This document shows positions 5,740 to 39,128 of a stretch of DNA of 39,128 nt, in pieces. The number at the start of each line of letters is the position of its first letter. Position 1 is the first letter of the stretch. The notes under the pieces are model-generated. The model was given only the letters and a program-made list of their open reading frames with translations. It was not told the DNA's origin and made no database searches. The stretch comes from Phoronis australis (Eukaryota > Animalia > Phoronida), in NCBI GenBank assembly GCA_002633005.1, contig NMRA01001142.1:10639-49766 (forward strand), written 5' to 3'. A program made the translations under genes and the position numbers.

Positions 5740-6000
5740 ATGCCGCTGTATTGCGAAGCATCGTTCCTGCTTGTCCGAACTATGAAGCTGCGAAGAAAGC
5801 GGGTATATCGTTTTTTCGACTTCCTCGAGAGCTCAAAATGCTTAGGAAGTGGCTCGCGGTAGTGAAGAATGAAAGGTACGCTGTTCATAGCAAATATGAG
5901 GCCGTGAAACATCTGCGTGTCTGTGGCCGGCATTTCGTCGACAGTCGGATTTCCCTGACGAATTCCGGCTTACCGAAGAACTATCCATACGTTCCGTTAC
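5740..6000 (+). pseudogene. THAP zinc-finger domain, N-terminal remnant of the Kolobok transposase, frameshifted
   Basis: Removing GAAGC at 5755-5759 gives MPLYCIVPACPN..ISFFRLP..LRKWL..LRVCGRHF..YVP, i.e. the C2CH THAP signature with conserved P, W and HF. Confidence 0.85.
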
Positions 6001-6150
6001 CTGTGCAGGTTCACGGCGCTTCTCTAGTATTTTTTGGTCAGTGTATTCCGGTTCGAACTGATAGCCTTTGAAATCTAACGATCCGACCCGTGGAGTCTTC
6101 GTCTGATGAGCTCTTCACTAAGTCGGGATTGGCGCCGGACGAGTTGCCAT
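6001..6150 (-). pseudogene. N-terminal remnant of a KolX-like Kolobok accessory protein
   Basis: Minus strand from ATG 6150, with in-frame TAG TGA, reads ..SLDFKGYQFEPEYTDQKILEKRREPAQ. Y-x-F-E-P-E resembles the N-terminus of KolX/'P2RX7-like' proteins (recalled, not searched). Confidence 0.55.
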
Positions 6151-7992
6151 GTAGACGTTTATTTTCTGCGCTCTGATTCAAAATGAATTATTCTCATCCT
6201 AACCAATACTTATGTAGAACTGAAACAAATCCTGTCTCATTAGATACAATTTGTAATGCCTTTGCAGTATTCGTGAGTGCAAATGTTGAGAAGCCAGTAA
6301 TGAATAAACCACTGCGTTACCGGCTTTTGATGCCGGCAATAAAGGTATTTGATCGGGCACCGAGGCCGTGTGAGCGCATGCTAATTCAGTGTTTACTGAC
6401 TGAAAACTGTTGTGAAAAAAATACTCAATTTTATATGCTATGGTCACATGTTAGGGGGATCTTTATTTAGAAATACAAATACATTATTCAAATCATTGTT
6501 ACTGTACAACCTTTGCCCTGACGGTCTGTGGAAAGGGAACCTGACTTTGCGGCCTCCGACAAGTAAGTAGATTTTCAGTTTCGTGGCTAATTCACATAAA
6601 TAATTACGTGTTCCTTTGGCTCACTATTATAGTCTTTTCGTGGCTGGAGGTTTAGTTTCCAACTCAAGCTGGTTTATGTTCGTGCCAGTCCCGGCGGCCG
6701 CGACGGGCCTGATTGGGTTCCGAGCCACTAGCCGGGATAACAAGCGTTTTGTGTGTTTAGAACTCAAAAAATCACAAGTCTAAACAACACAGATCTAGGG
6801 TCTCCTGTCTGTATTCTACGGGAGAATACTTCGAATTATCTCCGAACAGACCCCAAACTCGACCTGCTAGGGACCTTGGAAAATTGACCTGCCGAACTTT
6901 GTAGGCTACGGTGTGTCCAATCCGTAACAGCGAAATAAAACAACACGTTTGTATAAGAACTCGGTGTATTTTTAAGGGTTTTACATCGAGGTTTGATGAT
7001 TTATTGGTGTTAAACGATGGATTAAAGCGATAAGCTGACACCAGTAACCCGTGTTGTGAACTGCTGAAGAGACTACGTGTGAAACCAATGACGTCTTTGG
7101 ATAATTTCAACACCTCCGTCTGTCATCAGGTGTTAGGTAACGCAACCGAACGTGCCGTTATCGAGTAGAACTACTGGATCTAAATTGATACAAAATAGGT
7201 TGTTTTTTGGGTGGCATGCTCCTTTAAATTGAAAACCTGCAGTAAAATCTCACCAATTTCAGACAAAACAATTGCCAAAGTTTTGAAATCTTCTAACATT
7301 GCCGTATATGCGAATGTCCACAATTTCTCCGAATCAATTGTCAGATATGGTAAAGATTTTTAAAAAAATAATTTAGCATTTATTTGGTCTCTTATTTTTT
7401 TTGAAAAAATTAAAAAAACAAAATGTCAGGTGTTGGCCATATTGTGTCCTAAATCAGTTAGATTTTACCATCTGTTCTATTTTGGCACAGTTTTATTATA
7501 TGAGCATATGACTAAATACATGCTTAGGTCCTTCAGTGGAACAGCAACTACTTTGTTTATCTCCTACAGTTACTATACTCAATGACTATGTAATTGTATT
7601 TTCAGGTAACACCAATAGCCACAGGTGGGCCCGTGAAACTGTAAATGGCTTCTGTAAGTGATCATTCGCTGGAAATCTTGAGAGTGCATGGGTCTCAATG
7701 AGATGAACTCTACACTGTAATCTGCATTACCTTTCATCAAGTTGCCCAGCTTGCAATTCCAGAAGGTGTGCATTATCACTGGACATAACTCTGCATTGGT
7801 ATTATCATTCTAACTTCAATGGTTCCATGCAGTCCTGAAGGATGTTGTCACTCACATGGTCTGTCCATTTACGAACTGTAGCAGCTTACAACAGAGTACA
7901 ACATACACATTGTTGACGTCAGCAACAAAAAATTACGCCTGTGCTTAACATTTGATATTGACAGCTCTTGGTCCCTGAAATTTGGAAGTAGT

Positions 7993-8650
7993 GTGCCATC
8001 AGACAGCAACATGCCACCGTCACCAAAGACATTGTTGCCATCCTCGTCCATGGTTCTGCATCCATCTGCTGTTGGTAGCAGCTCTTGGTTACAGGATCTT
8101 GTCGGGACAGAAACTGTTTTGCAACTGGTTGACACCAGCTCGTGGACAATGCAAACATTACTGCCATCCAGTGTTCCTTCTCCGTCTGATTCTAATATTT
8201 TGTCACCACCATCTTCACTTCGTACAACTTTACCACTGTTGTTAACATCATCGTCATCATTATCTTCATTTTCATTGTCATTATCACCATCTCCATCATC
8301 ACCACCACTCACTACCACTGCAAGTTCTGCCACAAGTTCAGTAGCCATAACCACGTCCTTCGTCACCAGTCATGAACCGTCTCGTATCACAGCAGCACAT
8401 ACACTACCAACAGCTGCCATCTTGCCAACATCTCCAGTACATGGAACCTCGCAGCAGCCGCAACAAATGACAACCACAACTAGCAATGTAAAGACAATGT
8501 CTTCTGAAGTTTCAACAACGGGTTTACAGTTTTCAACTACTTTGCCTACAACTGCAGCCAATGGGGGCTCTAAAGTTTCAAGAACAACAACTGCAGGCTT
8601 ACCAGTTTCTGGTAACTCGATGTCGCCTTTCCCATCAACTGATAAGACAA
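7993..8650 (+). CDS. TM-SH3 gene exon: Ser/Thr/Pro-rich mucin-like extracellular region (5' boundary uncertain)
   Basis: 259-aa S/T-rich ORF. Donor A|GTAAG after 8650 (phase 1) splices in frame to the TM exon. Confidence 0.75.
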
Positions 8651-11153: not shown

Positions 11154-11931
11154 GTATGTGTTATGTGTTATGTGTGCTTCATTGGTGAGTGTAGTTGCTT
11201 TTTTAATGGCAGAAATAATTCAAATTTTGAATTACGATGGGTTTAAGTGTTTTGCAGGATTGTACTTCATAGGGAATGAAGCTTGGTGTTCTTGACATGT
11301 TGTAGTATTTGTCTCGTATTCGTCTTATCTTGGTTTGTACAGATTTTAGGCCTCTGTTAACTGCACTCAGAGCTATTGAAAAAATACAAGGCATAGATCT
11401 TCTGCATTATACAATAAAGCATTTCTTGATTAAAATTTAATAGTTTGCACTATCTCAGTGTTTGACAATAGGCTTCAGCTCAATTTAAAAATAGACATGC
11501 GCATACCACAGGGCTGTAACCATTTACTAAAAATACCTGGTCGAGCTGGTTGGCACATTCATTGATTGCTGGGTTTCTTATGTTAAATTTTCCTGAGTGG
11601 AACCTTTCCATTGCTATCTTCAGTTTCGTTTGCCATGCGAGTAACATGCTCACACACCAACACTTGGACTACAAAACAATTGATTTTTTTATCGACTCAC
11701 TTTCTTTGCTGCCTTGAAGTCTAATTCGTCACTTTTAGCACATAGTATGCCCGACAAGTGAAAATGTATTTTGTTTAATTTCTCAACAAAAGTAATGATT
11801 AAGAAAATTCTGGTCCATTGCTTAGATATATGGTTTGTCAGTTGTGTAAATGACATCAAACACCATTCTATACTTTCTAGCAACATTATCAGCCTTTAGA
11901 AAAACGAAGATTTTTTTCTTTTTTCCTTCAG

Positions 11932-12152
11932 TTGTTGGACCCAGCGTCTACACAGTTCAGTATTCTTACGTAGCCCAGGAGGAAAATGAACTCAGTCTTG
12001 AAGTAGGAGAGAGGCTGAAAGTGATTCTCAAGTATGACAGTGATTGGTGGGTTGGTCATAATGTGACCAATGGGAAGGAAGGATATGTGCCAGCCTCCTA
12101 TTTGATGTTAGATGCTCAGCACGCAGAGAAAGGACAGAGTGTAGTGATAGAG
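11932..12152 (+). CDS. TM-SH3 gene exon: SH3 domain 1
   Basis: VYTVQYSYVAQEENELSLEVGERLKVILKYDSDWWVGHNVTNGKEGYVPASYL matches the SH3 consensus. Polypyrimidine/AG acceptor and GTATGA donor. Confidence 0.92.
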
Positions 12153-12941
12153 GTATGATTTATGTGTGAACATGCATTTCTTGGGTTAATTTGTGATTTG
12201 GATATTTTGCTTTAAGCTAGAGTGCGTGGATATCACAGGTTCACAGCTAGAGTTACTATTGTGTTGGGACCTGTATGTATTCCAATGCCAAAATTTGAGT
12301 TGCATATTTACGGGTATCAAAGGCACGCAATCCCACTTGAAGTGGTTATAAGCCTGTCAACTTTTGATTTAGACCACTTTGACCACTATAAAAATGATGT
12401 GACGTCTTGTGCTTTACTCTGAGAGAATTTATTTCTAGTTTGCAAGGAACTGGCAGTCTGTTCTTCCTTGAGACCATACTCAGTGCATAAAATGGCGTGT
12501 TGTGGACACAAGAAAACAAATTGTAGAGCCAGGTCTCAACCATTCACAAGTTCCTTTGAAGCTCTGATGTTATCTCTGTATTTGACTAAGGAACAAGTTG
12601 ATACCAATTTCATAACAATGTTTCAAATCAGAAGTTAGTTTTTGTGTTAAAAAGTGGGTTTGTAGCTGTTTTAAACTAATGAAGTGACCACCCTTTGCTA
12701 CTTTATGCCGTGGGTCTGAGCTTGTTATGATGAAAAGTATTGTGGGCTTTGGGTGAGTTTAGGAATATGATGCTCTGAGAATACTAAAAGTGAATTTCAT
12801 AGATACAAAAATTATGTCCTGAAGAACAGGCCATTGAACCACCATTAGAGAAATCATGAATCAAAAGTTATTTGAATAGAAAATTTTCACTTAAATATTT
12901 TGCTCTTAAGTTCCCAAACTGTCATTTTTCTATTTTTCAGA

Positions 12942-15989: not shown

Positions 15990-16445
15990 GTAAATACGGA
16001 TGAATCACTAAAAAGTCAATTATAGTCCTAGCTCATAGGAAAACCACAAGAAAACTACAGATTTCCTACAATTGTAGCAGGAGTGCTTCCATTGCGGTCT
16101 CTTGAGTGAACGACATTTATAAAAAGAGATCAGTTCTGTCACCTCTGGTCAACTTTAACGTTGCTACAATTCTTGAACCTTTTCTCAAAGTCTACAAAAT
16201 TAATGAATGTCGATCTGTACTACTTTTTCCCAGGGTTTTAATTGTAATTTTAGATTTGAAAAGGTGTGTCTGCTGACAAGTCCTTTACAACTTGTCCTAA
16301 AACAATACAATTTTTGAGTTAAGTTTTGAGTAAAGAGGTTAGAATCTGGACTCTGATCTTAAGTTTTCAGATAGTGTAATAGCTGTTGATATCTTTTATA
16401 CTCAAATCATTTCAATTATTGTCAAGCTTGAAAATATGTTTTCAG

Positions 16446-18184
16446 ATTACATTGAACCCATATCTCTAGAAACCAACACTTCATCCGCACCAGTACCAGT
16501 TGTAACTGAATCAGTTGAACCAGTTGTCCCACGCCCCCTCAGACCAGCACCATCAGTTCCATCCTCTATCTCTCAGCAGCCGAAGACCTCGTCACCATCC
16601 ACTTCAAGTGTGCCTAGTGGGATTGTTGCAAGTGACTCATGTCCTACAGGCAATGCTGGTGGTGACAGCGGAACAAACATTTCTCTTAGGGAGGTCCCAG
16701 TGCCACCTGGGGTTGAAAAACAAACCGATTCGAGTTCCAGCCATGATGAAAGTACTTCAAAAAATCATGGAAAATGTGATATAACTGAAAGATCGCATTC
16801 CAGTGGTCATGATGAACAGAAAAGTAAACGTGGGCAGGTGCCATACTGGAGTGACAATCATAGTAAACCAGAAAAATTCCACCAATTTGAAACAGGTCAT
16901 CAATCTGTGGCTCCTTCTAGTGAAGATCATGTCAGGACTCCACCACCCAGATATCCACCACCTCGCCTGCCTCCTGGTGCTAAATCAGACAAAATACCTG
17001 AGCATACAGTCAATGCAGATAATGCTGACCAGCCTAAACGCAGGTGGTTTAACTTGAGAGATGCAGCTGGAAAATTAATTCAGCGTCTACGAAGCACATC
17101 AGAATTGGAAGCACCCACTAGTCCAGGTGACAGTGGTGGCAGTCCATTGGAATCACCTGCTAGTTCTAGTGTAGTTAAGGAAATATCTGGTCCTGAGCTG
17201 ATGGAAACTACCTTCAGAGTTAGTAACTTAGTGAAGCGAGCGCCCAAAAGGCCAACTTCTCCTCCAAAGAGGCGACTAAATGCTCATTTTGTTACTGTTC
17301 CCAGTTCATCCAATGTGATGAAGGGTGTCAAACGTGCACCTCAGAGACCCCCTCCTCCCAAACGCCCTGCACTTCCATTGAAATCCAATATTAAACCAAA
17401 GCGGCCATCAAAACCCCCAAGCAGGATCCCTCCTAAGAGGCCTTCCTCGCCTCCATCAAGAGCTGTTCCAGCACCACTGGTGATGCACAAACAACATAAT
17501 GACAATTTGGTATTAAAAGGGCTTCAAAATGAAAGAAATGAAAATCAGAAACATGGTCAGCCTCTGATTAAACCACGTCCGCCTTACAAGATGAAAAATC
17601 CTGAAAAATTGATACCGGCTGGCGACAATGACAAACTGGTAGCTGCACCATTTGGAGTCGCTCTTCGTCATGTTTCTGTGGGTGGAAAAGAGGATACGAG
17701 TAACAAATCACCTGAAGGTGGTGTCATTACCATGGCAACTGAGAGTGACCAGGGCAAGTTGAAATTTAACCAGGTTTTAGATAATGTTCATAATAAGGAA
17801 AAGGAGATCCTGAGAAACAGCGGTGTTACAGTGGCCGAAGATTTTTCCAATCTTAAAGAGCATCCTCTCGTTGGGAAGGTTGCAATTCACACTAACAGTC
17901 ATACTGGCAAGGCAAAACCACCACTTAATGCTAAGCCAGTAATCTCGCCGAAACCTAAGACTATGCCAAAACCAATACCTGCTAGTGAGACCCTCAACTC
18001 ATCAAATACTCCTGAACCCAAGCCAAGACTCGCCACTAATCCTGTGACTGCCCTTCCCCATCCAAAACCAAGAGTGGGTGTACCACGCAAGGTTGTGTTG
18101 CGGAAAGCCATCAGGTCGTATCATTCTGCAGATACTGAGGAGTTGTCATTTGAAGCAGGAAGCTTTATTAAGGATATACGAGAA
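16446..18184 (+). CDS. TM-SH3 gene exon: ~580-aa Pro-rich disordered region plus first half of SH3 domain 4
   Basis: Long ORF with many PxxP/RxxPxxP motifs, ending LRKAIRSYHSADTEELSFEAGSFIKDIRE |GTAAGT. Acceptor tttcag at 16445. Confidence 0.9.
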
Positions 18185-19441
18185 GTAAGTCTGATACAAT
18201 GAATCACTGATCTTAGTGTCTTCTATGATACAAAACACAAGTTTGGAGTTGGATGCATTGGTTAAATGAGGAAGCTGAGATGCATACTTTTAGACCTTTG
18301 TATGGATAGCACCAAACTTCATATACACAAGGAATTGTGGGATAGCAGTCATCCAAAGCATCATGGCTAGTAGTATGTAAGCAAACAATCTGTAGAAGTC
18401 ATTCTTTGTTTAGTAGTACTTCAAGTGGGCATGAATGTTCAGTTTGTCATAGATGCATGCATAGAGGTATCATCTAAATCAAGTACCAGCTTACCGAGTA
18501 GACATTCACCTTTTTGTGACTTTGTGCATTGGATGACTGGTATCCCACGTTAAATCTGTGCTGTGGGATGCACATTGATTTTTGCTATTTGTAAAAAGGT
18601 TGGTGGTGCTATGAGTGCAGTTTTTATCTTGAGCATGCAGTGAAGCGTAAGAATTAGGTTTACAAAAGTTTTCTAACTTGCAGCTTCTAGATTTCACTTT
18701 GGCATCTCTGCTTATTGTGTTCATCTTGGGATCAAGCTCATCACAGTCTGCACCACTTTAACGTACTTCTTGTTGTAATGATGTCCTTTAAATCTAAATC
18801 ACAACTGAAGCCTTCCAGTTACCCCTGGTTATCCACATTCTCTCAGGCCCAGCTTCTGTTGAGAGTTAGTGACGCATATAATTAGCTTATAAGCCATGCT
18901 TGGAACTAATTTCCAATGAATAGCTCAAACTTTGGGTTTTTGTTGATAATATCATTTGTTCCATTTTTGAAAACTCAAAAACCCACAGTCTAATTTTTAC
19001 CACTGTATTTAGCTTTCATCATTCACACTGCTTTTCATGCCCCAAAAGAAAATGGAAAAGTACAGCCTGGATGCTTTCAAGCAACAGTTATTGCCATACA
19101 TGACCTAAGGAATAGAGTCATTCCTTCAATGACCAGCCCACTAGTGAGAAGGTTAACGTAGATAAAACCAGATGGGCTCACCAGGTGACATCGGAGGAAA
19201 ACAAATGATTTCACCCAATCAATCCTTATGCTTACAGCATGTATATTTGAGTAAAGCTTTGTAGATTCACAAGTGCATCGCCATCATGAGCAATTTTTGT
19301 CTTTGTTTACCTTACCATCAGTGACTTGTAGTTGTCTTGGAATTATGTTCATTTTCTTACAGGTGGACACCTTAATACTCAAGATGACCGAAACTGCTCT
19401 GTAGCACTGTTGTGACTATATCTTTGTTGTGTCTTATCCAG

Positions 19442-23900: not shown

Positions 23901-25418
23901 TTCCAGCATGACAAAATTTTAAGTTGTTTTCCACTATTTTTCAAATTTAATCTATCTCTTATGTTCTTGAACATTTGTTTGTAAAACTAATTGCCTACTT
24001 CTACCCGGTGTGTTTTTGTAGTTCAAGTACAAGAAATTCTTGACATGATGGAACAAACTTAACGGCCGTAGATATTCATATCTAAAAATGGTGTCTATGG
24101 AACAAACCTTGGCAGACACAGGTTACTGTAACATGCAATCACATACTCGACTGTATATTTAGGTCATGTTGTGAATCAGCACAACATGTATGCCTGTTAG
24201 TGATTTTTACTTTATTTTTTATATTGCGTTATCTACTTTTGTTATTCATGCAGTTTCTATTCAGTTCATATCTTTATATGTTAGTGTTTTCATTTATGTT
24301 TTCTTAATTCTTTTGCGGACGTTTTGTGCTATGCTTGTGTCTCACTTGTGTGTTTATTTGTTTTCATTTGTCTTGTATTTTTTCTTGTATTTCCTGTACT
24401 TTTTTGAAGCTTAATAAAAGCAAAAACTACTAAGAGCACTTTACGCGCTTGAAACCTAGCCTTATCGTTTTGTCTGTCGGTTATAAGGAAGACTTGAGAT
24501 ACGAAGGAAGTACCTATGAAACATATCAGATCAAAACAGAGTACTATTTACTGTATACACAAACCACTGAAACGCACACGATGTTCTCTTCGTTCTGGAT
24601 CAGTGAGTAGCAAACGATTAGAGATAATTTATATAAATTGACGGAAATTTTCACAATTGAAGACGAAAATAGATAGTTCCCGTCCGTCTGTTCGTCGCCG
24701 TCCATGTCCGCCAGAGTGTTGGTTTCATCAGTTTTGGTAAGTTTTGAATGAAAATTTTGAACTATTGAAGTATCAATATGCCGATAGTTTCATGAGAATG
24801 GTAATGCATACAAAAATAAATCATTTTGTTTCCAATCCTATTGCTTGTCCTTGATTTTGTGGCCTAGATTTTTCTTGACACTCTGCTCCCAGCCGAGTAA
24901 GTCGAGTTCACCACACACTTGACGCGTAACCCTTTCGCTAAATAACTATTTGTATTTACAGAACGAGGCACGCCTGAGATGTTAGTTTCAATTGGAACAC
25001 AAGTTTGCCTATGTTTTACAAATCAGAAATCTTACCTTTGCCTTTGGCTGTGATACAGTCAGTGTGCCAGTTCCACTCCAGACCAATCATATAGATAGTG
25101 ACCGTGACGTGACCACCGTCTAGGGCTACGACCTTAGTCAGAGACGATGAAGCTCCTATCGGTGCTTCATAAGCATTGGAAGCTTTTCGGAAAATACACA
25201 CTGATTCAAATATCAATGTCATGTTATTAACCTTAGAAACCGTCGGTGTCTTTAATTCCTTCTAAGAATCTAAGTTGAGCAAATACTCCTGAAAAATCAA
25301 ACTTTTTAAACCTTCGTTAAGTTGCCCAAATCAGCAACGCCTAAGGCCAGGAGAGACTGTGGTCAATGTCTATAGTGAGACTAGTAATAATAATTACTCT
25401 CTGTACAAATGTTTGTAA

Positions 25419-25921
25419 TGTTGTGAATGTGCTTCCGGTGTATGAGCCTCTGTTAGCCACTCGCTAACGGGCAATTGCCTATTAATTAGCTGAATGGTTA
25501 GCACGCTTGGCGGTTAAATTGGGGTCGCTGGCTCGATTCCCGAGGTCGGGCAATCTCGGCTATTACCACAATTGACGTAGTCGGCAGGAGGACCTTAAAG
25601 CGAGACAATCTTGGGGTTCATCTGTCGGTCGGATATTCTGGGAGGTAAAAATCCAAGAGTAATATCTTGTGATGTAGTCCAGGAGTAAAATCCTGTGATG
25701 ACCACAGGAGTAGAATTCTGTGTTCACCTGCAAGGTGGCGCGCTTGTTCATAGGAAAGGGGGAAATGTTGTGAAATGTGCTTCCGGTGAATCATATATTA
25801 GCCTCTGATAGCCACTCGCTAACGGGCAATTGCCTGTTAGCTGAATGGTTAGCACGCTCGCCGGTTGAATCGGGGCCACTGGTTCGATTCCCGAGGTCGG
25901 GCAATCTCGGCTATTACAAAA
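25419..25921 (+). mobile_element. TRIM (miniature non-autonomous LTR retrotransposon) with tRNA-derived sequence in both LTRs (Helenus/Cassandra-like design)
   Basis: LTR1 25419-25570 (TGT..ACA) and LTR2 25766-25921. PBS TGACGTAGTCGGCAGGA at 25573 is complementary to a tRNA-Ser 3' end. PPT AGGAAAGGGGGAAA at 25752-25765. 4-bp TSD GTAA. 195-bp non-coding interior. Confidence 0.9.
25832..25903 (+). promoter_or_regulatory. tRNA-like Pol III internal promoter inside LTR2 (more diverged copy at ~25477-25552 in LTR1)
   Basis: A box TAGCTGAATGG and B box GGTTCGATTCC at tRNA spacing. D-arm GCT..AGC. Partial acceptor stem GCCTG../..CGGGC. Anticodon arm is non-canonical, so this is not called a functional tRNA. 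Confidence 0.75.
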
Positions 25922-26068: not shown

Positions 26069-28390
26069 ATAGGGACCAGTTCGTAAAAAAAGGTGTCATC
26101 ATCGTTAATAAGGTCTTCAATGGTTCAAATTACGCTTGACAGCAACAGGCCATAGCCCTTTGAAACTGAATAAAGGCTCCGTGGTGAGTTGCCGAAAGCC
26201 TAACCACCGATCTCACTCAAGCGGCAGACCGGGCCCCTAGGCTATTTATGGTGCAACGCGGCTTGTAAATAATCTCAATCATCTTTTCAATTCATCTCAG
26301 ACAACTAGTCATAGTCCTTTGAATTTTAACAAAGGCCCAGTGCCATCTATAAGCCTAAGCCACTAGGCTTACCTGCTCAATGGAGGTGCAGTCCGGCACG
26401 ACAGTCGCTGATCGTTACGTTAGTCCTAATCGCTTTTGTAGTCACCTTTTGTGTTCGGCAGACAACTGATCACATAACCCATTGAAAATTATTTAGACTC
26501 AATGGTTAGTTCTGCGAAGTCTAACTAGCCAGCAGAAACACCTTTGCGCAGGAGTTTTTACAATGGCTGTCTTTTGGGTGGCCAAAATTTTATTTTCGTA
26601 GCGCGTTTTTCAATATTCCGTGGGCCCCACGACATTACCGGCACCAGTCTCAACAAAACTTTGCATGCAGACGCTTTTGATAACTGTCATTGGTTGTTGT
26701 TTGGGTATTTATCACTTAGATGAACATTATTGGTTACTTTTGGTGCCACCAGCCCATCGAGAGCACGGAATTCATCTCATTGCCTTATAAGGAGTTTTGT
26801 TGGCAGCATGCGCATTATATTTGTGAGCGTACTCCTTCTGAAAATCTGCCTAACAGTTCGCAACAACTTCGGTTGCGGGCGTGCGTGACGTTTGTGGTTT
26901 TGGGGGAGTAATCGGACATTTGGGACAGCTAGTGATGTCGCTGGGTAAAGTTCAAAATATATGTCTCGCTCTGAGAAATTGTAGCCAAAATCACGTGCTC
27001 TCATTGAAAATATATGGTGATATCTCGTGTAATCTCGCAAAGTCTTGTTTTCCTTGCTTGGTCCTTACGTTGTTGAACTCTATCCTGGCTTCCGTTACCG
27101 ATTGACATGTGCATTCTACACACTTAGTAATGTCGTCTGCCATGTGAAGGCGTAGAAGGACTGCTAAGGATTATTTTGAAAACCGAGAGATATTTCAGAT
27201 ACTGACGTTGACTCAGATGCAGATACGCCAGATAATCCAGGTCTGGATGATGGTGATAATGCCGGGCTCAGTCAACGAATAGCAAATGTCCGTGTTATGA
27301 ACGGTGGACCGAATTTTTGCCGCCAACATCCGACATCGGCATTCTTAGTCTTACAATTCTCTTCAACTTGCGTTTAGAATATATGGTTCTCAGCTGGAAG
27401 ATTGAGTTTGTGACAATCCGGAAAATTATGTAAATTCCATAGTTGTAAGCTTTTGACAATCCAGTCGACATCTTTTTATAAATATTGGTTTTTGTCAATA
27501 GGCCTAACACTCTCGTCCATGTATATGGAAAACGCACGTGGATCGTTTTGTTTACTCTACCTAATTTGTATTCAGTGGAGGGATATTGTGCTATTTTTAC
27601 AAGAATTGACCCTCAGAATGCTGTGCACAACATTGGACTGAGAGAAAACCTAGGACCAATATCAAAAGGACTGGCAACTGCTTCAAACAACAAAGAAAAC
27701 CCCAAGTCTCGCTATATTATGATCGCCACGCGAGAATTCGCGGTAGCATTGGTTTGCCTTGTTTGCCATCGCCATATTTGTTCTCGGTTGGTCTTAGAAG
27801 TCTCTGGTGTAATTCGACAAGTAATCTTATACTTTCCACGGGATATTACTCTAATAGAAGGTAAGACATTTCCTATAGATCTGGTTGAACGATTGATGTG
27901 GTAAATTCATAGTATAAAACTCGAGGTCATCTGTACTTTGGTCGTAAGTTTCGACTTCGTTCCCCCGCTTTTGGTCGCTTGCACTCGCTTGGATGTGGAA
28001 AGCAATTTATCGAATTTGTGAAAATCTACCAATTTGTTACTGAAATTGTAAGCAAATGCAACCACAACGAACATTGAAATAACCAATATCGTGAACAGTT
28101 GACGAAGTCCATTTTTTTATTGTTTTGGTTTTTCCCTACAAACGAAGATCAAAAATGCGCGTAATATTGGAATTGATTGTAAATGCCTTAACTGCGTCTG
28201 TATCAACACGGAAATCGTGAATTTCGTAACATTATTCAGAAATTCGTTTGCGTTGTTGAGTGTCATATTTATGCAATTTCAGTTAAAGCGATATTATTAT
28301 TTTGGTGTGACGGAGCCGTTTTATCACAAAAAAAACTTAATTAGTTGATAAAAACTTCAAAAAAGATTAAGGAAATAATGTGATTGAAAT

Positions 28391-28618
28391 CCAAGATGGC
28401 CGCCTCCATCTGCCGCTGGTCACAGACCACCACTGTTACTCTATTGTCGTCTTTATTGTAATTCGAATGTAGGTCAGCTGCTAGCTGCTGCAAACCAAAC
28501 TGTTTATTATTGTTCTGAATTTCAATGTTTGTTTCAGAATCAAAATACTTTAGCTCTCAAGAAGTGGGGAAAATTGGGGAAACTAAGGTTCTGTTTGACT
28601 TGGGCTTAATAAGGTAAG
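28391..28618 (+). promoter_or_regulatory. Putative transposase promoter and non-coding first exon
   Basis: YY1-like CAAGATGGCCGCC at ~28392. Strong donor AG|GTAAGT at ~28613. Acceptor tgtgtttcag| four bases before ATG 29605. Confidence 0.4.
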
Positions 28619-29604
28619 TTTTTCTTGGCTTTATTGTTGCAGCTTTATTCAATCACCTCCGTTCTGAGCAGTTTGATTTTACTGTCAGTTGTGAATGTCC
28701 TTAAAGTTACTGCCTATGTTCATTAATAAGGATCTAATTTCTTCTATAACTTCAATTATTAATAATCAGGACTCAACATAATGACCAGCTGGTCGCATTT
28801 GCGATCTGAAATTAGGAAATGCAAGCTGAGATTTTGCCATGTCGTGTCAAGTTGTAAAATGCAACCTAGAATTTCCAACATACACTTCTTGGCAGGTATA
28901 AAGTAACTTGCATGAATCCGACCATTATTTGGTTGTTGCCAAATCAAATTCAAAAGAACACTAATCAAGAAAAGCCCACCTGATGACTTATAAGCATGTC
29001 GCGTGAACATGGAATACTGCAGAATTGATCTTCAACGCATTTCATTTTTGGCTACTTTTGCAAATTTCTAACTGTGCCGAAGAGAGTTTCGGACCACAGC
29101 ATAATGTGTGATAAAAGGACATAAGACAGGTGTTTCTACTAAGTCCTAGACAATCAACTTGACAAACTTTGTGATGGAAAATAAATTTATTTTTCAAGTA
29201 AGATGTCCTTATTATCAAATATCCACGACAAAATCCTTGATGTTGCTCTGCGCACTGGTCGGTGCCGTTGTTAGCGCACAAGCCACACTCCCGGCAGACC
29301 ACCGTGGCTTGGAATTGTGCATCTCGTTCTTTATCGTAAAAGATCTAAATAGATTCCCGGCAGTTATGAAAGATCCTAGGCCTTGTTGATATTACTCGGG
29401 ACTGATTTTTATAGCATCGAGCCCTGATAATAGACCCACAAAATGTATATTTTTCAAATCCCTGAGGATCCTCTAGGATTTCAAAATGTATAGTTTTATG
29501 GGTCTACTTTTAAGTATTGAAAAGTTATGTAAAAGTGACTGTTTGACATAAAGATCAATATTTTGAAGAGACTTCACATATTGCAACATTCTGTGTTTCA
29601 GAAG

Positions 29605-32346
29605 ATGCCAAAACCGCCAAAACGCAAAAAGTTTGGCATCGCAGTAAGGAGAAAAAAAGGAAGAGTGGTCACGAGACATGCTGAACATCCGTATTCATGT
29701 GTGAGTCTGCCACCGGAACACTTGCCACATCCTTCAGTTGGTTCATCGTTTTGGGAAATTCCCAATTTCAATGATGTTGGCAGTGGGTACGTCCATGAAG
29801 AAAAGATGGACCTTGATGGTCATCATGCGGACGAGTTTTATGTAATCTTGGACAGTGGCCCCGTTCTCGTAAGTCCAGACACAGACACTGACGTTTTGTA
29901 CAAGGACTCCGCATATGAAAAACTGAGAGAGTGTGTGAAAAACCTTGAGCCACCAGAGGGCTATTTTTACTACTCGAAGTATAGCTGTATTCAGTATGTC
30001 AGTCTGATTGAAAGTATCAACCCCTCTGTGAATGTCTCAGTGACTATACATAGATATTTTTCTGCACATGTGAATGTTCACACAAAAATGTTGCCTGGTT
30101 CTAGTGATTTTTGGACTGGCTTACCCAAACTATATAAGTCTGTCAGTGATGTAAGTAGGTTACTCAATAGATTGTCTATGTTTGAGGTGTGTCGTGGGAA
30201 CGATAGGGAGGACTTCCAGTTCTTAGTTCCTGTTGGGTGTGGTATGTCAGGTAGTAAGGCACAGTCAATTCAGGCCTATCGGGAAATGTATAATTGTCAA
30301 TCAACAATTAGACATGTAGCTTGTGAACTTCTTGTCTGGCAAGGCCAAAGATGCTGTAGGTGTAGGCTGTATAGTGCCACTGTGCGCAAATCCCTCTCTA
30401 GGTGTACTACTGGAAGTCGTAATGCTCAGTCAGAGAGCTTAGTCTCAAGTCGAAAAAGGGAGAGCTATATGACACCAAAAGAACTTAAGCAAAAACTTGC
30501 CGAAAGCAAGAAAATACGCACTCAGTTACATCATGAAGCGGAGAGTTTGCGAAAGCAGATAGATGCTTTGATTCAAGTTCAGGGTTTAGTTTTACCTGAG
30601 ACTGACAGTTTTCAATTGTTTAGTATGGTTAGTGACCACCAGGGCGAGGTGGAGTCTGCCTTCCCGGAAAGCGATAGCTTTCAGCGGCTGTTTTGGGAGC
30701 AGCAAGTTATGTACAATAAGACCAATAAGGGTAAGGGGATGCGTTGGCACCCCATGATAGTACGCTGGTGTTTGTACTTGCGTTCCAAGTCTAGTAAGGC
30801 TTATGAAGCCATGAGGTCGAGTGGATTTATTTCTTTGCCGTGTGCGCACACCTTATATGATTACAGTCATTTTACTGTAAGTGGATGTGGAATACTACCC
30901 GACGTGCTTGGCCTTTTAAAGAGTGCGTGTAAGAAACAGGGTTGTTATGACGTGCCTCATAAGCGGTTTGTCGGAATTTTACAAGATGAGGTTAAGGTAC
31001 AGGATGACCTGGTTTACGACAAACATAGTGGGGAGTTAATAGGATATGTAGACCTTGATAGTGTAGGAAATCAACTGCAGGAGCTTAGGGACACACTAAG
31101 AAATCAGGCAGCTATTGTTGCTCGCTATGTTCTCATTGTTATGGTTAGGGGTGCCACTTCTGGCTTGAAGTTTCCTTTAGCTAATTATGCCACTGATGGG
31201 ATTTCTAGCTACTTTTTATACCCTATAATATGGAAGGCCATAGAGGTATTGGAAGTTGACCTTGACCTTCGGGTGATATTTATAACATGTGATGGGGCCT
31301 CTCCCAACAGGAAATTTTTTCATTTACATAGGGTTAGGGCTGATCATCATCTTGATAGAGTTATTTACAAATGTTTAAATCCCATGTCTCCTGATCATTA
31401 TTTTCTATATTTCATATCAGACCCACCTCACCTGCTGAAAACTTCTCGCAACTGTTTCAGCAATATTCAGGTGGCCATATCAGATCAAGAAACTTGTGGA
31501 ATGGGCAAGAAATAACATGGCGTCATATTGTTAGGCTCTTTGAAGAGCACTGTGAAAATAATCTGTATACGTTATGTCCCAAGTTAACCAGAACTCATGT
31601 GTATCTCACACCCTTTTCCAGAATGAAGGTGAATTTAGCTGCTCAGATTTTGAGTGCCACTGTTGCCAAGGCGTTAGAATTTTACTATGGTGCAGAAGTT
31701 AGTAAAACCGTGCGATTTATCTCTATAATGAATAAGTTATTTGACTGTCTGAACACGAAAAATTTAGATGAAGGTGTCAGGAGTCGCAACCCACAGGTTG
31801 ATGCATATAGATGTGTGAATGATGACAGGTTAAAGGAGCATGCCACCCAAAAAACAACCTAATTTGTATCAATTTAGATCGAGTAGTTCTCCTCGATAGC
31901 GGCACGTACGGTTGCGTTACCTGACACCNAGCCTTTAAGGTGGCTATTGAATGATTGTCTTGTTACTTTCGACAGTGGCGTGAAACAGTTAATACTGTTC
32001 CTGGTCTAAGCAAGGCTAAAAAAGCAAAAATGCTTCTGAGTAATCAAACTCTGGAGGGTATAGAGTTAAGTGTTCGATCAATTTGTGAATTGACTGTGTT
32101 TTTGTTGAACAGTGGTGCCCCATTTGTATTAACCTCTGCTTTTAATCAGGACCCCTTGGAGCAACACTTTGGCATTATCGCCACAAAGGTGGGGCAAACG
32201 ACAACCCAACTGTTCGTCAAGTGCAGCAAATCATGACTGAACTTAGAACAGTAGGAGAGTTGGCTTTAAATAGGCGAGGTAATGTTCAAGTAGGTCCTGA
32301 TTCTTGTCCAGCCATTGACGACACCCCTCTACCTAGAAGGCATTAG
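29605..32346 (+). pseudogene. P-element/THAP9-like DDE transposase lacking a THAP domain, disrupted
   Basis: Motifs RWHPMIVRWCLYL, QDEVKV, TCDGASPN, SDPPHLLKTSRN, PKLT..H..FSRMKVNLAAQ, LFDCLN, NQDPLEQHFG and GGANDNPT. Frameshifts near 31465, 31955 and 32172, plus an insertion at 31834-31934. Stop TAG at 32344-32346. Confidence 0.93.
31834..31934 (-). mobile_element. Kolobok insertion (same family as 5576-7223), collapsed across an assembly gap
   Basis: 31834-31928 is a near-identical reverse complement of ~7129-7223. AGG..CCT ends with TTAA at 31830-31833 and 31935-31938. N at 31929. Excision restores D-R-L-R-W-L-L. Confidence 0.88.
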
Positions 32347-32785
32347 TCTATGAGACTTGGTAGTGCTATTTTACACAAACCATGAATGTGTAGGGTGATT
32401 TCACTGTTGTTTTTGGAAATGTTTTTGTACTGAATTTTCTTTTTGAAAACTTCTGTGGGAATATTGCATTTTTGTATTCTATTGTCTTGTATTCCTTAGT
32501 AAAGTTTGCAAGATTTCGGAAATTGGTGATTGCTTTTCTATGTGGGTTATTCAGTGATCTTTCTTTTTTAATTGAGATGAAGTCTGTAATTGTGCCTAGA
32601 ATAGCAACAATTTTTGAAAGAAAAAGTATTGATAAATGGCTACATGTTATTTGGAAATTGTGGTATATCAGCCCCTTGATTCATTACACTTAAATATAAC
32701 ATGATAATTTAGTTGCGAACTTTGTCTGCAGCCTCTGTATATGTACTCAAGCATTTGGTTGTTGTTGTTTTAGTAGGTAATAAAG

Positions 32786-33581
32786 TATTGTTCTCTGTAG
32801 TATTAACTTTGAATTTTAGAGTGAAAATGAAAGCGAAGAAATGAATAGCTACATGGGTTTTTCTCGAAGATTCTTGACGAAGCCTGAACATCCCCTCATA
32901 AAAATGGAAGCAAAATGTGACTTGATTGCACATTTGTTTGTCTCAAGTAAAATTACCAAGTTTCAAATAGGTCTGGCTAGAGGCAAGTCCCTTCGAGAAT
33001 TAGACCCCAGCGTGTCGCATTGTTTTTATCTCGCGAAAATATTTTTCTGACGTTCTCAACNATGTTTTCTTATATATATTATTAAGTGACGTCATTTGCG
33101 ATAAACCCAAGCGCCTGTGATTCACTACTATGAAAACATGCGTTTCTATTATTAGCCATCGGGAAATTCGAGCGCCTGTGGTTGACTGGTGTTATGGGCA
33201 TGCCGATGGGGAGATCGGAGGGATTGGAAAAAGTCACCGCTTTTTGCAAGTTGTGTTTAGTTTAGTTGTTGATTATGTGTGGATTGTTTATAAAACCTAG
33301 GACCAATATTGTTCTCTGTAGTATTAACTTTGAATTTTAGAGTGAAAATGAAAGCGAAGAAAAGAATAGCTACATGGGTTTTTCTCGAAGATTCTTGACG
33401 AAGCCTGAATATCCACTCCTAAAAATGGAAGCAAAATGTGAATTGATTGCACATTTGTTTGTCTCAAGTAAAATTACCAAGTTTCAAATAGGTCTGGCTA
33501 GAGGCAAGTCCCTTCGAGAATTAGACCCCAGCGTGTCGCATTGTTTTTATGTTGCGAAAATATTTTTCTGACGTTCTCAAC
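32786..33581. repeat. 275-bp near-identical direct repeat (32786-33060 and 33307-33581) spanning an N
   Basis: The copies differ by only a handful of substitutions. The first copy ends exactly at N33061. Confidence 0.9.
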
Positions 33582-33698
33582 ATGAAAAGAATATTCAGTT
33601 ACACAATGTATTGCAGTCACAAGCCTATACAGTATTTACACAAATGTAGTCAACAAAATCTGGCATCAGAAAAAGGAAATGAAAATGTTCGGTCACAA

Positions 33699-35221
33699 TT
33701 AGGAATTCACTTCCTTCAGAGATTTACGGAAAGAATTACCACCTTGTGATGACACTCCCCTCTTGTTCTTCTTTCCCAACAGTTTGGTAACAGCGAATCC
33801 TCTAACATTAAAAAAAATCTTGATTAACACTTCGTTCAGAATCACAGCCTTACTGAGCTTCTGCCACAGATTTTTCACAGCTGCATCGCACAATATAGTT
33901 TCTGTAAGACAGTTTATGTTCATTGACGTTTTCTTGAGATTAGAAGTGTCGACCATGGATCGCGCCACAACCTCATAACATTGAATCAAATGAAAACAAT
34001 CGAGTGACGGAGTCTTTAATCCTCCTCTGCTAACTTGCCTGATCCGTTCAGTGTGTGGATACTCTTTCTCAATGTCTTTGCATGTGAGGTACTTACAAAG
34101 TGACATCATGTCCTCCCTCATGTGTTTTGGTGCCTTTTGTGGTGATACTCTTAACATGTAACCAGCAATGTGACACAGGACAAGATTGTCATCTTCAGTC
34201 AATGCATCAGTGTGTGTCTTGTTCTTTTCTTGCGTGTTTTTCTTCAAAAGCGCAATGACGTCCTCCAATAACTGGAACAGGAACACTTGGGTAAATTGTT
34301 TGTTCATACTTCGAGTTTACACCAATATCAGTGAGAAAACCAGGATCATGCCTCAGATCATGAAACCCCAGCATTAACTGCTCAAAATCTCCTTCAACTG
34401 TTACCCCACATAACGCTGAGGACAGCAAGGCAGCAAATTTCGAAATTAAATTCTGAAACTTCGCATTGATGTCTTGACCTTCGAGCTGAACTTGTTTGGC
34501 GATGAGGACAATCTCTTTCCCATGAACCGAAGCTGGACTATTTCTAAAGGGACAGTCCACAATCTTGCATAATGATATTTGTATAGCATGCACAACTGTC
34601 TCCGTAAAATTTTCACGAGGAATGGCTGGTTCAACATTTTCTTTCCCAGGTGAATGTCTTCGGTTGTTGTGTGCTGCAAATGTAAAATGAATACATTAAT
34701 GGGGCAAAGTACACCACATGACTGAGCCTGAGAATGTACATTGACACTTAAATTGACATGGATCATGAAAAGTCAAAGAGGTACTAACTTAAAAGCTACG
34801 TGTGTTACACTCAGTGGCCCCAAGGCATCACTGTCGTAAGATATGATTATTTTCCCTACTTATTTTCCCAACTATAATCCTAACACTCCAAAGTCGACAT
34901 TTTCACAATCAATATTCATTTACCTTTCAAATCCGGTCGCTGATGCTTCTTAATACCGTGTCCGCGAAACCCACTGATGGAAGAATAGCTTTTGTCACAC
35001 AGAGGACAATCAAATTTGTTGCCATCGGCACTAGCACCAACGAAGGTAGTGGATGTTGCAGTTTCATCAGCAGGCAAAGTGCTAGGTTCTTTTCTCTTTT
35101 TCGAGATTTCGTACCCTGAGAAATCGGGCTCATCATTGCTTTCCTCCTCCGCAGTATAATCGCCCAACAGTGCGTCTAAATCTACGTCACTCCAGTTCAC
35201 GAAGTCGTCGTGTTTGTTCAT
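33699..35221 (-). pseudogene. Transposon accessory gene: acidic N-terminus, C2H2 zinc finger and [YH]IAGY..SRGGL..PS domain; two exons, one frameshift
   Basis: Exon 1 35221-34924 (FDCPLCDKSYSSISGFRGHGIKKH). GT-AG phase-1 intron 34923-34674. Exon 2 joins ORF 34207..34593, then frameshifts near 34310 into ORF 33699..34307 (LCHIAGYMLR..VSRGGLKTPS..FFNVRGFA). Confidence 0.8.
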
Positions 35222-35785
35222 AATTCACTTCTTAACTCACAACAGATGTAATGTGCTTTTAAAATGCAGTAAAGTAAAAGAAACCAGTAAAAATCAGCAA
35301 AGTGAAAGAAAAGACTTCTGAATACAACGTATATTCCAATTGGCTTATAAATGAAAAACGCCGACGTAGAAGAAACCACCGGTGCTGCGCCAAATAATTG
35401 CAGGAATTACACGACAAAACAAGACTACGCTGCGGCGAAACTCGGAAAAATACGTCCCCTATAATTCTAAACGTATACATCAGATATTTTACGGATGAAA
35501 GAACCAATTTCCCGTATGATTAACATTTTGAGACCCCAAGTCGCAGTAAAACTAGATTTTATGCCCACGAAAGTAAAAAACGCTCATCACTGACCCATTT
35601 TAAGGCTATTTTTAACAGATAAAAAAACAACAACGAAGTACAATTTCAAGTCAGTTGTATTCTACGTGCTCTAATTAGTACAATCAATGCATTTACAATT
35701 AATGACAGAACTTTAACATCGTCAAATTTTCAATAACAACACCTACAAGAATCACAAGGATTCTAATGCTGTGAAAGGGCGTGTA

Positions 35786-37539
35786 TTTAAAAATGGCTGC
35801 CAATGTTGTTGATTAAGTGGGCATGCCTGACAGTGTTGACATGGGCTGAACTGTGGTTCTGGCACTAAGTAAATCCGATTATTTCGCTTTGTGAGCCTGA
35901 ATAGCGAGGCAGTCATAGTACAATAGCGATGAAAGTTGGGCTTGAAGTTTCCACTCCCTATGTATATTACTACCTCAGAATGCTGTGCACAACATTGGAC
36001 TGAGAGAAAACGTAGACTTGGCTGCGAAGATATAAAATTGCGACTGGCTTTACGAAGTAATTTCACTTGTCCTGTCTACTTCGTCTGAAAAGTTTACTTT
36101 ATCTTAGACTTTTTGGACTTCGTTGACATTGAAATCACAAGTATTGAGTAAAATATTTCATTCTGTTTCAAATACGTCGGTAGGAGTGTAGACTTCCGTT
36201 TCAAAGTTGTCGACTAAACAAATGGGTTATGTGATATGTTTGTAAATAAGTCCACCTTTTAGAAATAAAGAAGTTGAACAAACCGTTAGTTGTTTGCAAT
36301 ACTGTGCATTACTGTTGAAGTGCGTGGGTAAAAATAAGGTGCACACTAGCCTACGGAGAACATTGACCACTGCGCGGTTCCGGCATGTTTGTTGCAGTTT
36401 TTACACATGCGACCCGTTTAGATTTTCAGATGTGGAGAACACTGAATAATGATTGACTGAAAACCGTTGCTCGACAAAACATCAAGCAAAGCTAGCACAT
36501 TCGAGTAGAACTGGTTTATGGCTGGATGCCACCAAATTTATGTCTCCATTTAAGTGTAAGTTGCCTGCTGATGTAGTCTCTAACACTAGTGACACCCTTG
36601 ACGATTACTTTTGAAACACGTTGTTCCTCAGGTTCTTGACCTACGTTCCCCTTGCAGAAAATGGCCTCCCAGAATGTTTTACAACGTCTACAACAGAGGG
36701 CAGAAGCAGCAGAAGCACTGTTATCCACCTTAAAAAAACAGCTCAACGTAATTAGATCCTCCACTCAGGCTAATGGTCTAATAGGTATGTTGACCTTGAA
36801 GTATTGTTGCAGATTGTCTCATCTATCCATACTTTCTAATTTCTCAATACAGTACTCCCTGCTCAAAAATCTCTAAGGCATATTATTGACAAAAAAGTTA
36901 CTGAAGGTGGCACTGTATATCAGGCAAGACCATGCCATTGGTTTTCAGCACTTAAAAACATTTTATTAGATTTCTTTGGTCCTGCGTATGAGGACCGGCC
37001 TATAGATGTAGTAAAATCTATCACAGTGAAGACTGTCTATAACCTTTCAATACTGAATTCTTCCCAGGTATACTTGGAATTTTCCGCGGAAACGCGGATT
37101 TCCGCTTTTTTCAAATATGCTTTCCGCTTTTCTCATAATATTTCCGCGTAAAAAAAATCAGATTTGATATAAAATTTCCGCGACAAATTCCTTTCTTACC
37201 GCGGGGTTGCAGACGACGTTCACCTCGAAAAGCGGAAGTTGCTCTTTATGTTTCGGAGGAACGTAAATTGTCAACATTGCCGGGGCATCTGGGACAGCGT
37301 GGTGGGATTTTCAATGGCATCTCATGTTATTGTTAAGCGCGGCGACAAATNTTTTTAAAAATGGCTGCCAATGTTGTTGATTAAGTGCGCATGCCTGACA
37401 GTGTTGACATGCGCTGAACTGTGGTTCGGGCACTAAGTAAATACGATTATTTCGCTCTGTGAGCTTGAATAGCGAGGCAGTCATAGTACAATAGCGATGA
37501 AAGTTGGGCTTGAAGTTTCCACTCCCTATGTATATTACT
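35786..37539. repeat. 186-bp dispersed direct repeat (35786-35971 and 37354-37539)
   Basis: TTTAAAAATGGCTGCCAATG..TATATTACT is near-identical in both places. The second copy starts just after N37351. Confidence 0.9.
36661..36784 (+). CDS. AIMP1: First coding exon of probable aminoacyl-tRNA synthetase complex-interacting multifunctional protein 1 (p43/pro-EMAP II)
   Basis: MASQNVLQRLQQRAEAAEALLSTLKKQLNVIR resembles the AIMP1 N-terminal coiled coil (M..AVLKRLEQKGAEADQIIEYLKQQV). Acceptor ccccttgcag| and donor G|GTATGT. The remaining exons were not found in the window. Confidence 0.72.
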
Positions 37540-38099
37540 CCCAGAAATCACCCAGGCAGTACCACGTTGTCTCATCAGGACGGGATAGACATTTCTATAT
37601 GCTAACAATTTATTATACATGTTTCTTGATCTATATATGTATCGCCTGATCACCACGAATCCTCCCTATGCTTTGGCATAACGGTTTGCTCTGCGGCGCC
37701 TTCGGGTCTCTCCGTCCCCTCGCCCCCGCCCCCCGCCTTTTGGGTATCATAAACTGTTTACCCCGAATAATAAAACAATGTGTTTAAATTTTTCTTTTTT
37801 ATCAAAAAAGCCAAAAATAACGTTGTTGCAGAATAGAGTGCCGACACACTGGGGATTTGCTTAGTAGAATTTCGTTATTAACTTTTGTCCAACTGTTTGA
37901 CGGACCAATAGCCTACTAATTGAATACTAAGTGTTTCAAAGTCTCTTTCGATTGTCCACAAAAGGAACAAGAGTCGTCATCCGTAACTTGAATTATTTTT
38001 GAAAATGAGTTAGTAGTCAAAATTCTCGTCAAGAGCCGAAGCCACCTAATTCGTGGATCTCTTGTTGTACGTGTTAAACATCTTCCCGTGAAAAATTAG

Positions 38100-39010
38100 T
38101 TGTGTTTACTTTCAGTTCGTTGGCCCATTATGACTCCGCTTTTGAGACTTCGGAACTGTAATTCAATTGTGTACAGATATGTTGACACCCTCTCCCACCA
38201 CTTTTCAGTTTCATTAAAATCGTTGGCATAACAGGACAATACGCATCAAAACTAACAACTCTATCAGTAGCACATTTCTGTTTGTACTTAAATATCACGG
38301 AAATTAGACTATCAGGGCATGTACTCCATAAAGTTCATTTTGATATCTAAAACATCCACAATAGGTCTATAGTTCAAAATATTACCGTATGGGGAAAACA
38401 AGTCCTTTATAAAGACTATCTAATAATGCTTCTATTGCACCAGTTCCTGTAGAAAATGCTTTTTGCTCCTGCCTGTAGATCACTGCTACATGTAAACCAT
38501 AAAAAGTTGGTTAAGAAAATTATCTGATTTTTGATCTTCAAACAATATCCAAAGGAGATTACACATTCAAAAAAAATCTTTCCAGAAGTGATTGTCAATA
38601 TTAGGCAACTTTATCTTTGGAAAGTCAACTCCATGCTTTGCGAAATTTCTAAATTCAGGAAAAATCAAATGAAACAAACAGGCAGCCTGACTGACCGTTT
38701 ACAAATTTTGTTAACATGTTAATCTTTAAAGCCTTACAGAATGAAAATATGTTAATCCTTCTGATACCTCCTTCATTATAATTACAAACAGCTCGGGAGC
38801 GCTCGTAATCTTGTCACTGCGACCTTGCCAGAGGAATTTAAAAACGTACACTAAGTTCAGTTTTTCTCGAATATGTTTCGAAGGTTGTGGCAAGGATATC
38901 AGAAGATTTGCAATTTTTAAAACCGCTAGCGCCTTGATTACTGTAATCCTCTCGAATGGCGTCAAAATTCTTTTGGACCAATTTCTCAAAATTAATTCAA
39001 TATCTTTCAA
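38100..39010 (-). mobile_element. L1/Tx1-clade LINE ORF2 fragment (post-RT region), decayed, intronic
   Basis: WSKRILTPFERITVIKALA..LLISLPQP..FLWQGRSDKI, then FWKD and LWF..FYRNW motifs, broken by frameshifts. Lower boundary approximate. Confidence 0.8.
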
Positions 39011-39128
39011 TTTCTAGATCACCACTTCTCGGTGGTCGTTTCAAGTTATTCTTCGGTAGCTAACCCACGCCAGTAGCCAGTAGCCAGGGAAGTCACCCCC
39101 AGACATAGGCTAAGCAGGCTTATCGAAC

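Follow-up and report, generated by a model that had tools for sequence, protein, structure and literature searches.

Organisation of the gene pair

The DNA analysed here, referred to as the window, is a 39,128-nucleotide stretch of the Phoronis australis genome (GenBank assembly GCA_002633005.1, contig NMRA01001142.1, positions 10,639 to 49,766 of the forward strand). It contains a P-superfamily DNA transposon with two genes, a decayed copy from a widespread animal family, in which a transposase gene on the plus strand faces a second gene, called the partner, on the minus strand. The transposase is without the C-terminal domain (CTD) of P transposases, and the partner encodes a homologue of that domain as a separate protein. 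A sequence-only reading of the window had proposed a plus-strand P/THAP9 catalytic core with an early stop, a convergent, intron-containing gene with a C2H2 finger and the motifs LCHIAGYMLR..VSRGGLKTPS, and mild decay of both genes. Both genes were recovered, the intron being predicted from sequence, and the decay amounts to three frameshifts and a TTAA-flanked insertion of 105 nt in the transposase and one frameshift in the partner. The features of the pair are as follows, with L numbers denoting relatives from the metagenome scan described below.

29605 (start methionine) to 32346 (stop), plus strand: P-type transposase pseudogene of about 878 codons, in four frame pieces (Pfam, family profile, motifs at 30979, 31285, 31420 and 32159).
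29911..30441, plus strand: unnamed N-terminal beta-rich domain with four invariant cysteines, a predicted zinc site (alignment of relatives, AlphaFold).
31830..31938, plus strand: 101-bp insertion between two TTAA, an end fragment of another element that breaks the transposase (94% inverted copy at 7129-7227).
32786..33581, plus strand: intergenic region that holds a 275-bp duplication (32786-33060 and 33307-33581) and, at 33292-33309, an 18-bp left-end copy.
33699..34673, minus strand: partner exon 2, a helical middle region followed by the homologue of the P-transposase CTD at 33705-34304 (profile, Foldseek).
34674..34923, minus strand: predicted partner intron of 250 nt, phase 1, GT..AG (joining the exons leaves 224 codons open).
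34924..35221, minus strand: partner exon 1, an acidic N-terminus and one C2H2 finger (Pfam zf-C2H2, exon match in L010).

The transposase begins with methionine and proline followed by basic residues (a basic MP start), and continues with the four-cysteine domain, a coiled coil, an HTH (helix-turn-helix) and a ribonuclease H (RNase H) domain with a GTP-binding insertion, without a THAP domain or a CTD. It matches the Pfam TNP-like families RNaseH_N (PF21787, E 5e-19), GBD (PF21788, E 5e-19) and RNaseH_C (PF21789, E 0.003-0.013), the last of these below the cut-off in a domain that is split by a frameshift. The DDE residues and the DxxH motif lie at about 30985, 31291, 31420 and 32159, with 32159 being the catalytic Glu, and the frame runs on for about 61 more codons, through RRGNV..DDTPLPRRH, before it reaches the stop. 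The frameshifts are at about 31460, 31960 and 32170. Other diverged copies, represented by DNA contigs and RNA reads of the same species label, have neither the TTAA insertion (contigs and reads join 31829 to 31935) nor the frameshifts near 32170 and 34299. The window copy is therefore a single decayed representative of a low-copy family. The intergenic duplication, with its left-end copy at the junction, may be a rearrangement made by the transposase or an assembly artefact, as there is an N at 33061.

The source family of the 101-bp insertion is represented by the end of a TTAA-flanked element at 5572-7227 of the window, which has AGGAG ends and a THAP open reading frame (ORF) at 5700-6068 (Pfam E 1e-10) and is a very high-copy repeat by read depth. 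We take this element to be Kolobok-like.

The partner comprises about 423 codons with its single frameshift near 34299. Exon 1 shows 38% identity to the corresponding exon of L010, and its C2H2 finger matches Pfam zf-C2H2 below the cut-off (E 0.004-0.006). Exon 2 bears the IAGY and RGGL motifs and the basic C-terminal helix. RNA reads of the same species label cover the partner, including its predicted intron, at a depth of about 1-6 on both strands, and none of them shows a splice joint. Single-sequence searches with the window partner gave no match, and a profile was needed.

The early stop in relatives

A protein search with the catalytic N-terminal half, restricted to entries of 349-1113 residues, gave 340 matches, of which 120 were listed, with hosts including molluscs, echinoderms and hemichordates; many of these entries are ORF calls, which would miss small upstream exons. 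The QDxLE motif is present in 73 of the 120 listed homologues, once spuriously, and the other 72 end 43-77 residues beyond it, typically with the tail GN..D.TPLPKR. None of the 72 carries IAGY/RGGL after QDxLE, and the 47 listed homologues without QDxLE are mostly cut models. The CTD profile found no match in the 120 listed transposases (best E 0.03), and a profile search for longer proteins, with 7,988 candidates scored, returned four matches, all of them partner-type or mis-joined models and none a fusion to a transposase. Because 72 listed relatives end equally early, the early stop is a trait of the family and not decay.

An ordinary single-chain transposase could still arise if two transcripts were joined by trans-splicing, and the two parts are complementary, at an RNA depth that is low. 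This is highly improbable, as the transposase frame closes with a conserved tail and a stop, while the partner has its own start and its own N-terminal domains and is intronless in L036 and L055.

A homologue of the P-transposase C-terminal domain in the partner

A partner profile built from 21 sequences and searched against 177,635 PDB sequences had a sole significant match, chain B of the Drosophila P strand-transfer complex (6p5a_B, E 3.8e-6), with the YIAGY and GGL..PS motifs aligned. The AlphaFold model of the partner is all helical (pLDDT 84.8), and Foldseek placed 6p5a_B at rank 1 (probability 0.99, TM 0.67 on the target), the next best hit having a probability of 0.16. Pfam Tnp_P_element_C (PF12596) matches five of the 21 partner members, with a best E of 2e-4. 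The last 35 residues of the partner have a median net charge of +8 in 19 sequences. The P CTD is described as all-helical, placed on a disordered linker and equipped with a basic helix that contacts transposon and target DNA (PMC7776569).

The transposase profile matches residues 123-559 of 6p5a_A (E 3e-39). Since the partner matches 6p5a_B, the two genes divide the P enzyme at the linker between RNase H and CTD, with the first gene corresponding to the chain A region and the second gene to the chain B region. The proposed likeness of the partner to the C-terminus of P transposases is thereby borne out.

Linkage, mobility and joint inheritance

A metagenome scan with the transposase alignment provided the loci for the linkage analysis, the best 80 of 278, which were grouped into 55 families. 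The window partner alone matches 17 of these 80 loci, counting weak tblastn matches, and the iterated profile detects a partner in 28, with a best reversed decoy at E 0.31. The partner is always on the opposite strand, 27 times behind the transposase and once (L003) in front of it. It is found in 17 of the 24 families whose sequence continues for 1.3 kb or more behind a complete transposase end, and in 9 of the 11 where it continues for 2.5 kb or more. Misses are mostly on short contigs, and gaps between transposase and partner reach 4.3 kb. Among held-out loci from contigs of metagenome-assembled genomes (MAGs), unused in profile building, a partner is present in nine of nine (eight distinct, L089 only partly).

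In L003 (positions 4371-8617), the nearest relative of the window transposase in the tree, the upstream partner is arranged head-to-head and not convergently. L001, where no partner was seen, has only 12 bp upstream, and its type may carry the partner upstream like L003.

Both genes lie inside terminal inverted repeats (TIRs) with exact 7-bp target site duplications (TSDs) in 10 insertions from seven families, in agreement with the expectation of convergent genes within shared TIRs flanked by 7-8-bp TSDs. Four of these insertions (L055, L075, L076 and L077) are copies of 4.5 kb that share 99.5% identity and differ in their flanks; each has 34-bp TIRs, which start CATAG, and its own exact 7-bp TSD. 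The others (L025, L081/82, L085, L086, L087 and L088) are bounded by 30-50-bp TIRs with 7-bp TSDs. The TIRs are 30-50 bp long and start CATAG or CATGG in most relatives; the window copy and L008 have CT[AG]GG ends, imperfect in the window copy (23/31).

The 7-mer targets (L025, L055, L075-77, L081, L085-88) often begin with GTT or CT or end with AAC or AC, suggesting a palindromic target preference. In L086 (5738-12623), one gene pair is enclosed by two TIR/TSD pairs of like type, one nested within the other. The loci L081-L089 are intron-broken, animal-type transposons on contigs in bacterial and archaeal MAGs. A prokaryotic origin was rejected for them, as intron-broken genes among animal-like repeats point to host contamination of the MAGs, and a search of viral contigs found no relatives.

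Trees of 21 non-redundant pairs agree closely: the Mantel correlation is 0.93, 14 of 18 splits are common to both trees, and so are seven of the eight well-supported partner splits. The Mantel permutation P of 0.0001 ignores relatedness, making the shared splits the better measure. This agreement reflects long joint inheritance and not physical interaction. Across the 21 pairs, the median identity is 33% for the transposase and 21% for the partner, whose alignment contains no conserved stretch of 7-10 columns. In the partner CTD, the nonsynonymous rate (dN) is far below the synonymous rate (dS) in all seven pairs, and dN/dS comes to about 0.15 in the pairs that are not saturated; purifying selection acts on the partner.

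Nested repeats crowd the window, which might suggest that chance brought a truncated P pseudogene next to a piece of some other element, and L089 includes a 2.3-kb TIR-bounded piece (1586-3842) that is mostly partner sequence. That piece has the family TIRs and a remnant of the transposase tail, hence it is a deletion derivative, and the conserved linkage, the shared TIRs and TSDs and the matching trees leave chance adjacency scarcely credible. The proposal of a single element holds: homologues of the two genes are linked elsewhere, the partner resembles the CTD, and it sits with the transposase inside one TIR/TSD pair instead of its own.

THAP, C2H2 and four-cysteine domains

No THAP domain was found in 27650-29800 of the window, where the THAP profile of the relatives reached at best 1.8 bits and Pfam gave no match in 19 upstream ORF pieces. 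The basic MP start of the window transposase recurs in 24 of 124 proteins. A THAP ORF does lie upstream of the transposase in 27 of the 80 loci and in nine of the 21 partner-bearing families, and it presumably splices to the transposase in these relatives. The description of the transposase as THAP-less, made from the window alone, is therefore right for the window copy and wrong for the lineage as a whole; THAP loss is a property of sub-lineages, the window copy included.

The sequence-only reading had further suggested that end binding moved from THAP to the C2H2 finger of the partner, in keeping with the window copy having C2H2 and no detectable THAP. In the partner, C2H2 was detected in 7 of 28 loci by a pattern search, with several contigs being cut. 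Five families (L009/L010, L025, L036, L045 and L057) have both THAP and C2H2, and the young, complete family of L055, L075, L076 and L077 has neither. Because THAP is common among relatives and these families have both or neither, the finger does not take the place of THAP. This distribution contradicts the swap as a family rule, and since the partner also has only a single finger, a move of end binding to C2H2 is very unlikely.

The four-cysteine domain is present with or without THAP. Its residues C94, C138, C148 and C151 are invariant in 29 of 29 sequences, and its AlphaFold model has a pLDDT of 88.8; searches of Pfam, PDB sequences and Foldseek gave no match for it. For the partner and this domain, the ESM Atlas yielded only leads below 0.9, which were not used. 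A role in binding DNA or the partner would be a guess.

Proposed mechanism

The division of the P enzyme by homology, the linkage inside TIRs with 7-bp TSDs, the co-divergence and the purifying selection are observed, and the pair probably forms a heteromeric transposase; we infer both the binding of the partner and the need for it. The transposase, which ends before the CTD, would carry out catalysis with its RNase H core. The partner, produced from the opposite-strand gene of the same element, would likely bind the transposase and fill the CTD site, and the bound partner would supply in trans the DNA contacts made by the CTD in the single-chain enzyme. End recognition would likely stay with the transposase, through the HTH together with THAP where it is kept, or through the four-cysteine domain.

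Several observations weigh against a two-protein enzyme. The Pfam matches of the partner to Tnp_P_element_C are weak, the Foldseek match to 6p5a_B has an E-value of 0.12 and a root-mean-square deviation of 4.5 A, and the partner, at roughly double the size of the P CTD, may have gained other roles. No partner appears in seven of the 24 families that have 1.3 kb or more downstream, and in five of the seven the sequence there extends for only 1.3-2.1 kb. L078 is a true miss, a decayed copy with more than 9 kb on both sides, and solo partners fall outside all counts because the loci were chosen via the transposase. L008, L029 and L057 have TIR pairs with mismatched flanks and no matching TSDs, and are probably assembly chimeras. 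The trees contain one supported conflict, the position of L066, and the window copy itself is flanked by a 33-39-bp repeat without a 7-bp TSD.

The partner, although of CTD descent, could now be a dispensable regulator (a repressor, activator or targeting factor), with the short transposase cutting and pasting alone. It has 130-200 extra N-terminal residues, which in some families are acidic and carry C2H2, a combination known from transcription factors; its sequence diverges more quickly than that of the transposase, and L078 is without it. We consider this reading unlikely, since the partner is kept in nearly all complete elements and in very distant hosts, the parts of it that are conserved are the motifs and the basic tail, which correspond to the DNA-contacting CTD of P, and no transposase of the clade carries a CTD of its own.

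Beyond the heteromeric enzyme, we tentatively propose, with somewhat more doubt than belief, that these elements form a large, old and still active P branch in marine invertebrates with an obligate two-protein enzyme, split at the RNase H-CTD linker, and with an undescribed four-cysteine zinc domain able to substitute for THAP. This branch would be undescribed in print, and its two-gene state may be ancestral to single-chain P/THAP9. No description of a two-gene or split P element was found in the literature searched; Repbase, Repbase Reports and most subscription journals, which may annotate such elements, lay outside the search.

Comparison with known transposons

The P-superfamily features found here are the DDE core with its GTP-binding insertion and DxxH, the TIRs, and the 7-bp TSD, the latter in relatives and not in the window copy. 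TIRs of this superfamily usually start with 5'-CA. Of the features of single-chain P/THAP9, there is no CTD in the same polypeptide and no N-terminal THAP was found in the window copy. The canonical single-chain enzyme is further marked by GTP as its cofactor and by cleavage with a 17-nt stagger. The two-gene families share the HTH, RNase H DDE core, GTP-binding insertion, DxxH, CTD homologue and TIRs with the Drosophila P transposase (PDB 6P5A/6PE2) and its superfamily, including 1360/Hoppel and Galileo; a 7-bp TSD is reported for 1360 and Galileo (PMC3698922). They differ from Drosophila P in having the CTD as a separate opposite-strand gene of about 330-420 amino acids, an extra four-cysteine domain unmatched in P, and a THAP domain that is kept in some sub-lineages and gone in others. 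The elements are 4.5-11 kb long, and most start CAT, some, including the window family, CT[AG]GG. Vertebrate THAP9 and zebrafish Pdre belong to the same catalytic family, and homologues of the two-gene transposases are annotated as THAP9, whereas THAP9 and Pdre are single chains with THAP and CTD and have an 8-bp TSD. The zebrafish Pdre2 TIR is given as beginning with CATA (PMC10983969), and the human THAP9 CTD is reported not to align with the Drosophila protein (PMC10824691).

A second gene carried inside the TIRs is a likeness to Kolobok/KolX, Harbinger and ProtoRAG. The PIF-Harbinger/Myb-like pair and the tail-to-tail ProtoRAG layout both place it there. Accessory protein genes within the TIRs are likewise described for Kolobok (PMC9587614). 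The partners in known two-protein transposons are unrelated proteins (KolX with a cytoplasmic-ballast fold, nucleases, helicases), whereas the partner described here is a piece of the transposase, which makes the two-gene P element a case of gene fission or of an unfused ancestral state and not of recruitment. Kolobok targets TTAA, and PIF-Harbinger has a Myb/SANT partner and a 3-bp TSD and needs both of its proteins to transpose. In place of a Cys-rich KolX accessory, there is a helical partner with a match to the P CTD, and the TSDs are variable 7-mers. No Myb/SANT Pfam match was found in the window partner pieces or in the 21 partner CTDs, and the TSD of 7 bp also differs from the Harbinger type.

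P is the textbook single-gene transposon, and a natural two-gene version would show that the target-contacting CTD can be a separate and separately regulated subunit, so that its role in end processing and target capture can be tested by omitting one gene. It would also explain two large mis-annotated animal protein sets, the short 'THAP9' models and the orphan IAGY/RGGL proteins, and offer, within a transposase, a counterpart to RAG1/RAG2 and other two-subunit systems. Young intact elements with this built-in two-key switch are candidate genome tools.

Ends of the window copy

The candidate ends and flanking repeats in the window are the following.

27650..27680, plus strand: likely left TIR, starting CTAGG and carrying the family GGACTGG-type core (rank 4 of 15,577; 23/31 matches to the right end).
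35941..35978, minus strand: likely right TIR, its last few bases altered in the window copy (rank 3 of 15,577; read junctions).
27611..27649, plus strand: left copy of a 33-39-bp flanking direct repeat, presumably an abnormally long target duplication (43-nt repeat, 98% identical to 35973-36015).
35973..36011, plus strand: right copy of the flanking direct repeat and start of a different host repeat (reads and contigs entering at 35977).
26469..26483, plus strand: left arm of a 15-bp inverted repeat, probably the end of an outer host repeat (no TSD, unlike family TIRs, high read depth).
36221..36235, minus strand: right arm of the 15-bp outer inverted repeat (rank against family TIRs).

The ranks come from scoring 15,577 positions against 13 reference TIRs of relatives, a post hoc test in which the top scores are near background, and a TIR profile searched with nhmmer did not detect any end in the window (best E 7.5). 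The left end at 27650 is closest to the ends of L008 and L014. On the right, reads of other copies diverge from the window at 35971 with a complete terminus (4, 6 and 45 reads in three read sets), and reads and contigs of another repeat join at 35977 with different left flanks. The ends of the window copy are thus likely 27650 and about 35975.

The bounds previously given for the element, 26473..36231, correspond to an inverted repeat that is real. No target duplication was found at its 26469/36235 ends when looked for, its arms rank only 4343 and 1827 of 15,577 against the family TIRs, and a comparable repeat occurs in 4% of 200 simulated flank pairs. These arms are probably the ends of an outer, unrelated host repeat, and the bounds were not upheld. 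A contig joins 26487 to 27617. On the simplest reading, the outer repeat that owns the 26473/36231 arms received an insertion of an 8.3-kb element, with an abnormal duplication of 33-39 bp. A second, isolated copy of the right end, with its terminus intact and at rank 1 of 15,577, lies 1.6 kb downstream at 37354-37544, beside an assembly N.

Other features of the window

Host gene exons at 11850-12155 and 16343-18199 encode a long proline-rich region and stretches that we take to be SH3-like. Two tandem copies of a tRNA-like repeat of the short interspersed element type, without an ARAGORN call, lie at 25417-25917. A minus-strand fragment at 38726-39013 has no Pfam match and presumably represents the C-terminal part of an ORF of a non-LTR (long terminal repeat) retrotransposon, which it resembles.

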